Assembly (NCBI GenBank): GCA_010356995.1
Contig: ML996689.1
Location: 1,258,691-1,322,690 of the forward strand
From: Trichodelitschia bisporula
Lineage: Eukaryota
Length of the DNA stretch: 64,000 bases
Direction: 5' to 3'
Positions 9,904 through 56,713 of the stretch are shown in pieces. Under the pieces are notes generated by a model. It was not told the DNA's origin. It did not search any database and saw only the letters and a list, made by a program, of their open reading frames with translations. The position numbers and the translations under genes were made by a program. Positions within the stretch are counted from its first letter, which is position 1; each line of letters begins with the position of its first letter.

Positions 9904-12900
9904 TCACAAAACAATATACAGCTCATGCCGCTCCAACGCCTCCCCCTCCAGACTCGGATAATATGGAACCATAGAATCGGCGCTGTGTACATACGCATCG
10001 TTGTAGAGCCGCCAGTATGGCTGACGGACCTTACGTGCCGGGTGGAACAAGCCCGCCCACACATAGTTCATAACCACGCCCGTACCGACAGCCATACGGA
10101 TCGCCTCAATGGCCTCAACAATCCGCTCAATAACGTGCGGGCTCGTCTCGAACAGGTTCGGGTAGAGCAAGTTCAGAAGATGCACCATGGCATCCTCGCA
10201 GCCCAATCCAACAACGCCAAGAGCAATGTGCTTCACCACCGATGCCGCCGTCTGCCGATGCACTTGATCGCGATCAATGAGCGCATCCTCGAGTAGTGGT
10301 GTCACGGCGTAGACGTAGTCCTTGGCCATCTCGCCAATGTACTCGAAGAGGAAAGACAGCGACTTGAGCACACCGTTTTGGACATTGAGTTCGGGAACAC
10401 GGTACTCGTTCATCAGCGCGGGCAGCACCGTGAACGGTGCGCAAGTTTCGGCAACAATGCCGATGGCGACGGCCGTGCACACACGTGACTGACGTTCCTG
10501 CACGCGCAGGTTGTTCAGCAGCGTTGCCAGGACGTCCTGCGGGCCGATGGCTTTAGCGATGAAACCAAAGGTGTTGTTGGCTGCGCGTCGAATGCCCTTC
10601 TTGTGGGCCTTCAACATATCCAGCAACTCGAAGCAGATACGCATCCACTCGCGAGCGTTCACACTCTCGGGTCCACGATCGGCGATACGGCCGACGAGGT
10701 CAATTGTGTTCTCCTGCACTTTCTCGTGGCGATTGCGGAGGATGGGCGTCAGGCGCGGAAGCAAGTCTTTGATCGGAGGCTGCATCTGATTGATACCGAC
10801 GACGGTGACGATGGAGCGCAAGGCACCCAGAATCGAACCGAGCACTTCAGGATACTCCTCGCCGAGGTATTCGTAGAGGACTGTGCCGAGCTTGCCCATC
10901 AGCTGGTCCTCACCGCATTGCTTCATGACCAGGGCGATACGCGAGACCAAATCGGCGGCCTGCTGTCGCACTGTAGCGGACTTATTGTTCAAGCGCCACA
11001 GGATCGTGCTGACAATCTGGGGGAGATAGGGCTTGCAGCGCGTACCCATGGCGTTAACCACTGTGCCAAAGCCGTTAAGCATGATGATATCCTCGACGCT
11101 CTGTTCCTGGAAGGCGTGGAGGATGCCGTCGATGAGGCGCTCCTCGAGGCGCTCGTTGATGTCAGCAGCGCCCAGGCTTGCAACGATCTTCTCGATCGTC
11201 TCGACTGTCATCTTGCGGTAAGCCTCGCTCTCGTCCTTCAGGTTGTTGACGATCCGCTCGAGAATCTCGCCTGCGCCAACCTTCTGACCGATATCCACAG
11301 TGGTGTCGACGACCTGGCGGTAGTTGCGCTTGTCCAGAGCCATTCGCCGCACCCAGAAGCTCTTGAAGAATTCGGTGAGTACATTCTCCTTCAAGTACCC
11401 TGCCGTTACGCCATCGGTGCTCGCACACTGCGAGATGACCTTAAGCACAACCTTCTTCATCTCCTCATCCGGGGACTGGAACTCGCGGATGAGAATCTCC
11501 ATGATTTGGCTGGTGTAGTAGTTGGCATACTCCTCATCCATCAGAGGGATGATGTATCCGACGGCCTTGAGGAAACCGGCCAACCCCTTGCCACGCTGCT
11601 TGCGGGCACCCGTCCAGAGCGGATTGAGAATCTCATCAAAGCTTTCGATACCGTACGGGTTGGCAGCTTCGGCGAGCGCCGCGATCGCCAAACTGGTGAC
11701 AGTACGGACTTTAGCTTGTTCATCGTTTAGGTTCTCGCCAATGCACTCAACCAAGCCCTTCAGATGAGGCAGGATGGCGCAGCCCATCAGGATGGGAATC
11801 TGTTGCACAATCTTGACACCGGTGTGGCGGGCCTGCCAGGATTTCTTGCTTCGACAGACGGCGCGGAGGAAGGGCAGCAGAGCCGGAATGCCGAGGGCGG
11901 AGGCGACAACGGCGAAGGCGCGGGCCGTCGTGTTTCGCACGTACTCATCGACATGGTCAATGTCGGGCCGCATGGTACTGATCATGTGAGCGAGACCGGC
12001 TGCTTTGCTGAGATTGGAAATGATTTCTCGGCCTTCAACACGAGCATAGTAGTCTTGGTCGATGAGCAGAGGCTCGATGACTACAAGAATCTTGTGGACG
12101 TAAGGCCGAACGAGGTCATCCAGCTTGTAGAGGATGCGGTCAATGACCTTGACCAAAAGATGGCGCTCCTGATCCTCGAGCGTCTTTTCCATGAGCAGGG
12201 GCAAGATCTGGTCGAAGAGGGGACCAGCTCCGAATTGCCGGGCATTGTCAGTGAGCTGCCGAAGTGCAGTCTTACGCATCGGCGGAGTGCCGTTCTTCAC
12301 CTTGAGCAACAACCGTAGGATCTTGCGCTCCTTGAGTTCTTCGACGGTCATCTGGTTTTCATCAGCGCCATCGACGAGCTTTCCGAAGTACTGCATGTCC
12401 TCAGCCTTAAAGAACTGCAGATCGCCAACACCAGGAATCTCCGTGGGCAGCTGCTTGCCCATGATGTTAGGATTGACTGCTTCCTGTTGCATGAAGCCGC
12501 CGATGGCTGCAACCGGCGTAGCTGGTACGACCCGGCGTGCAGGCGCATTAAGAGGTTCGTAGCCAGCAGGGGGGACTAAGATCTTGTACCCCTCGGATGG
12601 AAGCATCTCGTCCAGCTCTTCGTCAGACAGAGGAGCATTGCGTGCAGAAATGTCGGTGCCAAAGGTGATGACCGGTGCCACGGGGGTGGCGCCTGGTGCA
12701 ATGGCAGGAGTCGCTGTCGAAAGTGCTGGTGCCTGGTCCCATCGCGAGCGGCGTTTGGGCGCGCCCTCAGCAGTCTCAGGCGCAGGCGTTGCGTCCCATC
12801 GCGAGCGCTTCGCTGCCGAATCCTCCGTTTTGGCTTCGGCAGCAGCCGGCTCCGTTGACACGTCCCAACGCTGCTTCCTCTTTCTGGTGGTGGTGGGTGC

Positions 12901-13585
12901 CGGTGCGGGTTCGGTTGTGCCGTTCTCCTTGATGTCAGCCTCGCCATTCTTAAGCGTCGGCTCATGTTCCATCACACCGTTTTCTTCCTCAGCCTCCTTG
13001 TCAGTGATGATCTTCTTGATGCGCTCCTCCTCCCTTTCGATCTCACGGAGCTTCATGACGTCGTTGTATGTCAGACCCTCTTGCTTGCCCTCGGCAAATG
13101 GGTCGGCGCGCGTCGGCGATAACTCGCGACGCTCGAACTTGCGCTTCTGATAGTCGGACTCGCGGGACGTGATCTGCGCCTGCTTCTCCCGACTCATTAG
13201 AATGTCGTCCTCTGCCGTCGCACCGTGAGCAAACTCATTCATCTGCTCCGTTGTGGCCGTGTACTGCCCCACCAGCCGCCGGCCCTCATCCGGGGCATCT
13301 TCCATATCCGCATCATCATCGTTTACGGCGATGGACGTGTTGTATCCGGCGAACTTGTCTACGGCGGTGCGGTCATACAGCTCGGTATCGAAGCTTTCCG
13401 TCAGGGACGCCTTGGTCGACGTGTCGGTCCTTTGGCTTGCGGGATCAAAAGTCTTCGAGCCTTTCTTCGCGGCGGCAGAAGCGTTGCGCTCCTGCTGGAG
13501 CCGCTTGATCGTGGCAAACTCGGCTGCAGAGAGGTCAGTAGGGCACCCTTATCTTCACTAGCTGGGCATACATACCGTCAGACAT
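9904..13585 (-). CDS. SF3B1: U2 snRNP splicing factor SF3B1 (Hsh155/Prp10)
   Basis: Start [17 protein letters not shown] with intron 13524-13575. ULM motifs RKQRWD and RSRWD; conserved HEAT region ([40 protein letters not shown]). Confidence 0.98.
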
Positions 13586-15519: not shown

Positions 15520-15929
15520 TTTGGCGAGTTGTGGATTGAGGAACGACCTGAGGTTAGTTATCGAACTCGGGGTTGGAGGATGGATGTTTTTGGTGCGAAG
15601 GGTTGTTGTAGGGATTTTGTCGATGGTTCGTGGTGGTCCGTGCACTTCTCGCTTGTGCGCGCGCCAAGCCGGCGGGCATCCTTAAAAGGACGAACCTCTT
15701 CTCCTCAAATTTTCATCACAAGCGCCTTCGCAGTACCTCACGTCTTCTGTTACTTGATTGAGCAGCAAACTGCTCCCATCCTGCTAGACGATGCTTTGCG
15801 CATTTGACGCAGTGTGAATGCAACTTTCGGAGCCGCATGCGCCGACGACTCGTTACTCTAACAGTTAACCATACCACCCATGGCAGAACCCCGTATTAGG
15901 TACGTTGCTGACTTCCATTCTGTCTTCCG

Positions 15930-16012
15930 CTTTTCATGATGAGTTATATCCACTGGCACCTCTTGTGTTTTACGGGCTCCGCTCGAATGATCGCACCGGA
16001 CCTCTGATTAGC
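15930..16012 (+). ncRNA. Candidate box C/D snoRNA inside an intron of a non-coding host transcript
   Basis: Box C ATGATGA at 15936-15942 and box D CTGA at 16004-16007, short GCT/AGC terminal complementarity. Enclosed by donor AG|GTACGT (15900), branch GCTAAC (16056) and AAG (16072). Confidence 0.55.
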
Positions 16013-17111
16013 ATCCTCGCCTTGTTTTTTTTCATGTGCATGTGAGAATGCGCTTGCTAACGAGTCAAAAAGTCCATATCCTCGGTTCGTCAATCGACGA
16101 TGTATCGGCTGGGTAGCACACTTGACGCCTGCGTAACGGATGCCTCGTACGATGGCTCCCTAGATACTGTGCGAAATGCAAATCCGCTCGCTTTGAGTAA
16201 ATTGACTGCTCAGTTCTCCTGTCTCACTTGATGCTTTGACCATGTCCACGATGAGAGCTGGAGTCCAGCGACAGGCTACACTTCGTTCCCTTCGGGCAGA
16301 ACAAGTTAACTTCGGCGCGCGCAAGGTTCCAGATGGGCTTCGAAGGGGTGTTCGATTCTTTGCTTCTAGAATCCGTACCCTTGCCCCATTCACGTGATAT
16401 CAATATACGCCAAACTGTCCTGTCAACCATCGCTCCACCAAAACCTCAGTTCCGTCAAGCCGGACAGGTAGCTCCCGTCTCAGATCGGATCGTGCCGCAA
16501 TCGCTCATTGGATCTGACACTACTCTCAAACAGACGCCTCCTGCGCAACTCCACACCATTCGGGCTCTACAGGTACCCGTAGGGACAGGGATTCGAAACG
16601 CCGTAGCCGACGTCACAGATCTGCGACCTTTCCAGACCTTCTTTGCAGCTACTCTCTCCATGCGAGCCAACCGCCACACCCGTCCTATCCTTGGACTCAC
16701 CAGAGCCCGTTTTGGAAGCCTTCCCGTCGCCTACTCCAACGTCCAAGCCAACGTCCAAGCTCGTTGCCACGTACTCGCACAGCGCAGGCTGCGCCATGCA
16801 TCAAGCGCACGTACGACTTGACCGCGCCCCAATAGCTCCTACACTCGTCCCAAGTGCTGGACAAGTGACCCCGCGTTTGACTGTCGCTGAACTACCGTCA
16901 CCATTGAGTGGTCACGATCCCACATGTTCGAGTTACTGCTTCGAGCACCCCTCTTTCCGCGGCTCTTGCGCGTTCTCGGGCGACGATGAAGACGCTTGGT
17001 CCTTGGTGCCCCTCGTGGCAGAGGACTTCGAGCATTGATAAACATGGCTGCCGCCAGAAATGAGGAATATCGTCTCAGTCCTCCACTCTCCCAACTTCCC
17101 TTCTGTTCATA

Positions 17112-19045
17112 ATGTTGTGTCTACTATTATTTTCTTATCTCGCTTCTTTGGTGTCCGCGGCCACTGTTGTGGTCAACTGGGACGTGACATGGGCCGTTGC
17201 TGCGCCAGATGGTAACCCGAGGCCTGTCATCGGCGTCAATGGCAAATGGCCTTGTCCGACACTGGAGATCAACAAGGGCGACCGGTTGCTTCTGACCTTG
17301 AACAATCAGCTCCGGAACGAGTCCACATCGATCCATTTTCATGGTCTCTTCCTCAATGGGAGCCAGTTTATGGATGGTGCATCCGTTGTCACTCAGTGCC
17401 CTATCCCGCCGGGCAGCTCATTCACCTATGACTTTACTGTAAGTGCTCTCTTCGTGTGTCAAGAACAAGCAGGTAACACGGTATAGGTGGACCAAGTTGG
17501 GACGTATTGGTGGCACAGCCACACCTTTGGCCAGTATCCTGATGGCTTCCGCGGACCGTTGATTGTTCGCGACCCCGCCCCACCATACGGCAAAGTGGAT
17601 GGCGAATTCACCCTCACTTTGAGCGATTGGTACGACCAGCAGATGCCGCCATTGATCCAGGCGTACCAGTCCCGAGCCAACGCCGAAGTTAACCAGGGAC
17701 ATGAGCCCATCCCAACCGGCGGCGGCCTCATCAACGACAAGAAGAACGCCAGCTTTGCAGTGGAGCCCAACAAGACGTACCTCTTCCGTCTCATCAATGT
17801 TGGAAACTTCCTCGCCCAGGGTCTTGACTTCGCTGGCCATGATCTTACCATGGTCGAGTTGGACGGCGTCTACACCCAGCCTACCCCACTTGCCGGCAAG
17901 AACGTCCGCCTCGCCACTGGCCAGAGAATTGGCTTGCTGCTGAAGACGAAGCCTAATGCGGCCAGCAACTTTGAGATCAAGGCGATGTTTGATACCACCA
18001 TGTTTCCGCCAACGCCGGGCATTCAGATGAATACTTCTGCCTACTTAGTCTATGACCAGTCTAAGCCGTTCCCGCCGCCTGGTACACTGTACAACATCAC
18101 GTATGTCGACGAAACAGCGCTACAGCCGCTGGATAATCAGCCCGCCTTGGAGCCGGTGGACAACCGCGTGGTCCTTGACACTACCTTTACAACCGTCGAC
18201 GGGATTCACAGGGCAACAGTTAACAACCTGACCTACCTTCCCGCAAAGGTACCAACTCTGTACACCGCCGTCCAAGCAGGTGGAGACTACTCCCTCAACC
18301 CCAACATCTACGGCCAAGTCAATCCCTTCGTCCTGCGCCCCAACGAAGTTGTCGAAGTCGTCATCAACAACATGCACCCAAGTCTACACCCCTGGCATCT
18401 CCACGGCCACGCCTTCCAGGTAATCGAGCGCGCCCCTCCCAACGCCGGCATCTTCACCGGCTTCCGCAACGCCTCCGCCATACCCATCAAGCGCGACACG
18501 CTCATGGTGCAACCGAACAGCTACGCAGTAGTCCGCTTCCGGGCCGATAACCCAGATAAGTTCCCTCAAATATCCGTTTCATGCTCGCAAGCTAAACCCA
18601 CCCACGCGTCTGGATCATGCATTGCCACATCGAATGGCACGTCGAATCCGGGCTCGTAGTCACCCTGATCGAAGCGCCGGAAAAGCTACAGGGCCTCCCT
18701 ATCCCCGCCAACCACATCGATAACTGCGTCCGCTATCCCATGCCCTGGCAGGGCAATGCGGCGGGGAATACAAGGAACTTGCTCGACCTCGCGGGTGTGG
18801 ATACGCGGGCGTCGGAGGACAAGCACAATGGGTGAGTTATCCGAGGTGGGCTTTTACAGTGAGATGGCTAACCGCTTAGCGCGCTCTACGACCCCGTCAC
18901 TGCGTACACCAATGGTCCCCTTACACCTACGCAGCAGTGCCCGCCCAGCTTCGCGGGCTGCATCGGACATACGTCGCTTATCGTGCAGTCGGTGCCGACG
19001 CACAAGCGGCGGTGGCTGGAAACGCTGAAGTGGCTTGTTCGTTAG
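17112..19045 (+). CDS. Secreted multicopper oxidase, Fet3/Abr1-like
   Basis: Signal peptide; copper motifs SIHFHG, YWWHSH, HPWHLHGH, WIMHCHIEWH. Introns 17439-17486 (GT-AG), 18556-18605 (AT-AC), 18832-18879 (GT-AG). Confidence 0.93.
18556..18605 (+). other. Non-canonical AT-AC intron
   Basis: G|ATAAGT...GCTAAACCCACCCAC|GC; removal restores ADNPGVWIMHCHIEWH. Confidence 0.85.
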
Positions 19046-56703: not shown

Positions 56704-56713
56704 NNNNNNNNNN
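56704..56713. other. Assembly gap (10 N)
   Basis: Run of N bases. Confidence 0.99.

Follow-up and report, generated by a model that had tools for sequence, protein, structure and literature searches.

A probable U2-type AT-AC intron with old, apparently inherited ends in an Abr1-like multicopper oxidase gene of Trichodelitschia bisporula

In the window (the whole stretch of 64,000 nucleotides of Trichodelitschia bisporula DNA that was analysed), the reading frame of a multicopper oxidase gene is broken between ADNP and VWIMHCHIEWH. The locus raises the question of how this break is bridged, which spliceosome could do so, and whether the ends of the intron arose in this gene or were inherited. 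The original prediction held that no GT-AG intron repairs the frame and that removal of 50 nt, from ATAAGT to CAC, restores the copper motif, and both statements are borne out. Among all frame-keeping excisions of at least 20 nt within 18480-18640, none with GT..AG, GC..AG or GA..AG ends repaired the frame. Excision of coding intron 2 (Table 1), which starts with ATAAGT, ends with CCCAC and is flanked by CCAG on the 5' side and GCGTC on the 3' side, gives the sequence ...RFRADNP-G-VWIMHCHIEWH, and its retention leads to a stop after 499 aa, upstream of HCHIEWH.

Table 1. Exons, introns and splice signals of the Abr1-like oxidase gene, in positions of the window
Feature	Position	Strand	Remark
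Coding exon 1	17112..17438	+	Abr1-like multicopper oxidase; spliced contigs and public protein
Intron 1	17439..17486	+	GT-AG, 48 nt
Coding exon 2	17487..18555	+	copper motifs 2 and 3; ends with DNP and first base of Gly
5' splice site CAG/ATAAGT	18553..18561	+	major-spliceosome consensus save A at +1
AT-AC intron (coding intron 2)	18556..18605	+	50 nt, phase 1, inside Gly codon of DNP-G-VW
Putative branch site GCTAAAC	18591..18597	+	one letter off CTRAC
3' splice site CAC	18603..18605	+	joint in RNA-like contigs
Coding exon 3	18606..18831	+	HCHIEWH, the fourth copper motif
Intron 3	18832..18879	+	GT-AG, 48 nt
Coding exon 4	18880..19045	+	to stop codon; protein 595 aa

The oxidase region was present in four public sequencing runs (X1-X4), one of which (X1) has no coverage of the intron site. 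In runs X3 and X4, the predicted junction CCAG/GCGTC was found in both (joint from 18555 to 18606), with AT..AC ends, 0 ambiguous letters, a shorter side of 225 letters and a depth of 111.5 (X3) and 7.2 (X4). The upstream CAC ending at 18601 was unused in the contigs. X3 and X4 are assembled contigs from one sample of one study, and their label as RNA is a guess, as none is recorded as RNA; they fit RNA because 11 of the 13 joints listed in them are GT..AG introns, the other two being a low-depth 47-nt variant of one of these and the AT-AC intron. Only the spliced joint was seen at intron 2, in contigs that give no measure of retention, and a paralogue piece at 18387-18421 confounds contig depth there with retained forms. 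That the AT-AC ends are an assembly error, a pseudogene feature or a reverse-transcription artefact appears practically negligible as an explanation. It could draw on the facts that DNA run X2 may be the assembly's own source and that the RNA-like runs come from a sample other than that of the DNA. On the other side, X2 gives a single contig across 15262-23500 with 0 differing letters and 0 gaps at a depth of about 200, no alternative letters are listed in the RNA-like runs, the same ends occur in unrelated genomes, and the 595-aa frame is intact. The junction also lacks a repeat, and template switching at 18555/18606 is unlikely because no letter fits both sides.

The spliced 595-aa model is letter for letter the NCBI protein 'conidial pigment biosynthesis oxidase Abr1/brown 1 [Trichodelitschia bisporula]' (P0001), from a fungus of the Dothideomycetes. 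It contains three Cu-oxidase (cupredoxin) domains with all four copper motifs and aligns with the yeast Fet3 structure 1zpu (E 2e-120). Abr1/BrnA belongs to the fungal ferroxidase family (PMC3200161), and the oxidase resembles Abr1/BrnA and Fet3 in the domains and motifs that it has after splicing. It clusters with Aspergillus Abr1, apart from Fet3, with a support of 1.0 in one tree and 99 in a tree of 61 rows, and the FET3 of T. bisporula is a separate gene. An intron at the homologous position was absent in all T. bisporula paralogues read, FET3 included. A role in pigment formation can only be presumed, because a scan of 13 neighbouring ORFs (of 125 listed) gave neither a pigment-cluster nor an iron-permease gene, in which respect the oxidase differs from Abr1/BrnA and Fet3. 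No long hydrophobic C-terminal anchor was found in the protein by eye. Elsewhere in the window, a spliced RNA with a 173-nt GT-AG intron (15900-16072) lies upstream of the oxidase at 15737-17111 (+); one X3 contig joins it to the oxidase, and in X4 its depth is 137 vs 6, so that it is possibly an independent small or non-coding gene instead of a 1.2-kb leader of the oxidase. The gene for SF3b1, a subunit of the U2 snRNP, lies 3.5 kb upstream of the oxidase (9904-13548, -), which we take as coincidence, and a run of 10 N occupies 56704-56713.

By its signals, intron 2 is best placed in the rare but known class of U2-type AT-AC introns, spliced by the major spliceosome. The donor was predicted to be GTAAGT with G1 changed to A and unlike the U12 consensus, which agrees with the sequence; it equals the U2 consensus save +1 and also the metazoan U2-type AT-AC consensus, in which ATAAGT is reported to be strong (PMC5029451). 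The branch had been described as of the ordinary CTAA type. The putative site GCTAAAC is indeed U2-like, but it departs by one letter from CTRAC; the branch A would lie at 18595, 10 nt before the intron end, and the other two coding introns of the gene have branch-like sites GGTAAC and GCTAAC. Pairing between the two terminal bases of an intron is established, as is the rescue of G1A by a change of the last G to C; yeast and human reporters splice this combination, though less efficiently (PMC1557818). Intron 2 would thus presumably be removed through the same pairing of its first and last bases.

It had been proposed that the gene is spliced in a U2-type manner in a lineage devoid of the minor spliceosome, and the snRNA search agrees with this. 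With the best 40-50 candidates scored for each snRNA, U11, U12 and U4atac gave 0 matches in the T. bisporula assembly (whose completeness is uncertain) and U6atac none over the cut-off, whereas the major snRNAs gave 15 (U1), 11 (U2, of which 10 over the cut-off) and 5 (U6) matches. In a survey, minor introns are given as absent from Dikarya (PMC10639083). It is very improbable that the intron is of the U12 type at present, whether through the donor ATAAGT or through an internal ATATCCGTTT at 18570. The latter (18570-18579) is one letter from a U12 donor, and excision of 18570-18601 would keep the frame. However, the junction used is 18555/18606, the internal motif recurs in 0 of 9 metagenome loci with A..C intron ends, and the minor snRNAs were not found; the intron has neither the ATATCCTT donor nor the CCTTAAC branch. 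The internal U12-like donor was rejected as neither used nor conserved. A dedicated U1 variant for A+1 was excluded as well, since 0 of the 15 U1 copies read had a U at position 8 to pair with this base. Altered 5' ends were seen in 6 of the 15 U1-like genes (C19:443066, C5:15963, C1:592483 and C7:940729-942285 among the sites), one of which would pair with G/GTTTGT donors and three of which stand in tandem on C7. One U2 copy lies directly downstream of FET3 on C21 (L005:103-299, -).

A genome-wide habit of AT-AC splicing was rejected. A strict AT-AC pattern gave 0 matches vs 1 in the control, and a looser AT..AC pattern was near background (23 vs 17 reversed) while GT..AG was far above it (191 vs 37). 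Among the 23 AT..AC matches, only three appeared real by frame and motif: the Abr1-like intron, one in ISU1 and one in a FAD-dependent monooxygenase-like gene. Another match (L072) is an ordinary GT-AG intron on reading of the matched sequence. The ISU1 candidate (G000:C4:1492160-1492218, +; L086:1446-1504) has 59 nt and splits YHEK-V-LDHYE; a TAG between its branch and CAC would need to be skipped. The monooxygenase candidate (G000:C2:871005-871052, -; L064) has 48 nt in phase 0 with the borders AAG/ATATGT...TAC/ATT, and its removal restores the frame; it is seen in DNA alone.

The ends were then compared in relatives, by means of a pattern blind to the intron ends, which gives 1 match in the window and 0 in 100 shuffles and reaches only introns of 40-70 nt with WH in the copper motif. 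All 22 metagenome loci matched by this pattern carry an intron at the homologous site, in phase 1 as in the window. The comparison of termini called for in the original prediction gave matched ends in every one of them: 6 AT-AC (3 distinct) and 3 near-identical AC-AC, together the 9 A-type loci, and 13 GT-AG (8 distinct), the G-type loci, with 0 mixed. As in the window, the exon ends with CAG and positions +3..+6 are AAGT in 9/9 A-type loci; AAGT thus stands in 10/10 A-type introns when the window is included, vs 0/13 of the G-type, and a GTAAGT donor occurs in 0/13 G-type loci. A putative branch CTGAC or CTAAC was present in 9/9 A-type loci. The AC-AC ends (ACAAGT...CAC) occur in L031, L037 and L041, in a Fet3-type gene grouping with Alectoria, and are known from DNA only; they are the A..C counterpart of a GC-AG intron.

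Proteins read through the intron give a second view, as its first base is decoded with the preceding G: G/AT or G/AC yields Asp and G/GT yields Gly, so AT and AC donors are indistinguishable. Among the best 120 of 594 oxidase matches, 40 show NP/D, one shows NP/G into junk, 76 run on to HCH and 3 are without the motif; a second search added 147 rows (14 A-type, 23 G-type, 81 running on, 29 short of the site). The donor state over these 267 rows is A in 54 and G in 24, and where both ends can be read (30 rows) they are A..C in 17, G..G in 13 and mixed in 0. With the DNA copies, mixed intermediates number 0 in 53 cases (23 DNA copies, 30 protein-decoded). The codon at donor +3..+5 is K, M or E in 52/54 A rows vs 8/24 G rows, a contrast among related rows that may be inflated by about five G rows (such as P0181, P0220, P0256, P0265 and P0287) that are possibly not introns. 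Among 113 further Fet3-type matches, 9 were A-type (Lasallia, Hypocenomyce, Alectoria, Chaenotheca, Thelocarpon, two Vezdaea, Cirrosporium and Watsoniomyces), 9 G-type (Teloschistaceae, Alternaria and rows without an organism name), 89 ran on and 6 had no motif. The named A-type carriers belong to the Dothideomycetes, Lecanoromycetes, Coniocybomycetes, Leotiomycetes and Eurotiomycetes. Rows that run on to HCH may be spliced, annotated or intron-less, and the intron is lost in many Penicillium-like ORFs. In the Monascus and Aspergillus chevalieri clusters, ORFs on long contigs read NP/D.. to a stop and full-length ORFs on short contigs read NP/GIW..HCH; if the latter are transcripts, as seems likely, splicing would hold in other species.

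It had also been expected that gene predictors would mis-model the intron. For T. bisporula itself this did not hold, and the public model can be called correct because it is identical to the spliced protein, but relatives are often affected: 18 of the 52 species-named models among the best 120 of 594 matches break at the junction (15 with NP/D, 3 by deletion of the junction). All five models named as Aspergillus fumigatus abr1 among the 15 listed cluster members (of 20) are without the HCH motif; one truncated A. fumigatus model sequence stands on 263 contigs, and curated entries are not among the listed models. Screens may consequently call such enzymes truncated or inactive.

The history of the ends was read from a rapidly built tree of 61 rows chosen by hand, of which 30 are A, 15 G and 16 stateless (L032 and L005 left out), and in which the state of the Exophiala row was taken from its cluster mates. 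The A rows fall into the Abr1 clade (99), the Fet3 clade and a third, near-basal group, and a single A clade is rejected (p-AU 1.7e-53). At least 5 A/G changes are needed on this tree. The ancestor of Abr1 is A at a cost of 1 step vs 3 for G; for the Abr1+Fet3 node, A costs 5 and G 6, a margin of one step, and at the Pezizomycotina Fet3 node the two states cost the same (4 vs 4). By reading of the tree, G groups lie inside A-type clades under either root (P0089, Alternaria, L030 and Teloschistaceae), and a G-type Fet3 subclade consists of 6 DNA loci and the Exophiala cluster. A switch from A..C to G..G at both ends has thus apparently taken place in at least four lineages, and most of the changes, as we infer them, run in this direction. 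Together with the tree, these G groups indicate that the A..C pair in the window is inherited and old and did not come from a recent local double change. A..C probably predates the split of Abr1 and Fet3; as the ancestral state of the whole Abr1+Fet3 family it is favoured by the one-step margin. The compensatory double change originally suggested for the T. bisporula gene is therefore not supported in that form, as A..C is inherited, is common to classes and paralogues, and changes mostly towards G..G.

We consider it highly probable that the ordinary spliceosome removes intron 2 as an AT-AC intron of the U2 type, and that its A..C pair is old and inherited and was switched to GT-AG at least four times. 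The first and last intron bases would pair in the second step, with A-C in place of G-G, and the ends would have to match because of this pairing; the U1 pair lost at +1 would be offset by the near-perfect donor CAG/AxAAGT. In this scheme, A..C would already have existed in the Abr1-clade ancestor and come down from there to the T. bisporula gene, while some lineages would have lost the intron whole and others, on at least four occasions, would have exchanged both ends for those of GT-AG; the donor would then have been free to decay.

Where the A..C pair itself came from can be explained in more than one way. The intron is possibly, though we think it somewhat doubtful, the relic of a U12 AT-AC intron of the ancestral ferroxidase gene that retained its ends but changed at +4..+6, and so passed to the major spliceosome, before the minor one disappeared from the Dikarya; such an origin is compatible with its present U2 splicing. 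The same path is proposed for the AT-AC U2 introns of sodium channels (PMC2831892), and it would suit the age of A..C and its presence in paralogues. Rows guessed to be yeast- or basidiomycete-like branch between Abr1 and Pezizomycotina Fet3, and the duplication may hence be very old; 7 of the 54 A rows read D-M (ATATG), which is nearer to ATATCC. A donor ATATCC or GTATCC together with the branch CCTTAAC, however, occurs in 0/22 loci. It is rather unlikely that GT-AG was ancestral and that A..C arose twice, on the Abr1 stem and on the Fet3-subclade stem, by compensatory double change with some later reversions, which would shift the originally predicted mechanism deep into the past. This would cost only one extra step (6 vs 5), with a tie at the Fet3 node and a Fet3 subclade that is G-type as a whole, and G1A with the last G changed to C can be spliced in the reporters, if less efficiently (PMC1557818). 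But a rare double change would be needed at least twice at one homologous position, in a family where A-type ends are also found in a third group of paralogues near the base, and AT..AC patterns are near background in the T. bisporula genome.

Unlikely, to our mind, is that the odd ends are selected as a regulatory throttle, in which slow splicing limits or times the oxidase output and the unspliced form encodes a dead 499-aa protein. A..C has persisted across several classes, retention removes HCHIEWH, and another metal-handling gene of T. bisporula, ISU1, has an AT-AC intron candidate. Nevertheless, the contigs show the spliced joint only, and the intron is absent in the T. bisporula paralogues read, lost in many Penicillium-like ORFs and converted at least four times. 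There is no conserved RNA fold (z-scores +0.9 to +1.9 in 5/5), and trapping, whereby two changes are needed to leave the state, explains persistence without any function (PMC2831892). As a tentative wider form of the U12 descent, the intron could be a minor-spliceosome fossil in Dikarya: the ancestral Fet3/Abr1 gene would have carried it as a U12 AT-AC intron, it would have passed to the major spliceosome with unchanged ends, and it would have lasted hundreds of millions of years as part of a small, hidden group that also includes ISU1 and others. If that were true, the four or more coupled switches and the AC-AC form would make a natural series of escape from the 'trapped' state, perhaps with a slow-splicing control on copper-oxidase output.

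The class of intron 2 is already known, and we regard the age, the coupled switches of the ends, the AC-AC form and the wide mis-annotation as of more interest than the local oddity. The known U2-type AT-AC introns number a few dozen. A published account of the AT-AC intron of this oxidase was not found in the open-access papers searched; the original abr1 paper lies outside that scope, and prior notice is possible. In fungi, AT-AC/AC-AC introns are hypothesised for xylanase genes (PMC1557818), two AT-AC and one AC-AC introns are given for Fusarium graminearum (PMC3577648) and 13 AT-AC introns for Ganoderma (PMC11590231), yeast RPL30 has a minor isoform with a non-canonical A..C intron (PMC5029451), and AT-AC/AC-AC introns make up 0.019% of the introns annotated in fungi (PMC7072748, Table 1). 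These introns likewise have A..C ends in Dikarya and are often missed by predictors; in the parts of these reports available to us, they are single-species lists devoid of orthologue comparison and none is named a multicopper oxidase, the three Fusarium genes being given by id only. U12-type AT-AC introns have the same terminal dinucleotides, but the intron described here has neither the ATATCC donor nor the CCTTAAC branch nor detected minor snRNAs. The closest known systems are the U2-type (type II) AT-AC introns of SCN4A, SCN5A and TAF2, of which class 15 are counted in human, 6 in mouse and 3 in fly (PMC1557818). They similarly combine AT..AC ends and an ATAAGT donor (PMC5029451) with a U2-type branch and long conservation in orthologues and paralogues, whereas the intron here is fungal, 50 nt long and in a lineage without the minor spliceosome. 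Because AT-AC, AC-AC, GT-AG and intron-less states occur across many species at a single fungal position, genomes that are already available would allow tests of how such introns arise, persist and escape. U2 AT-AC introns are proposed to descend from U12 introns and to have been trapped thereafter, as escape needs two simultaneous changes (PMC2831892); by contrast, at the fungal oxidase position, with its repeated GT-AG switches and its AC-AC form, this trap appears to have been escaped repeatedly.
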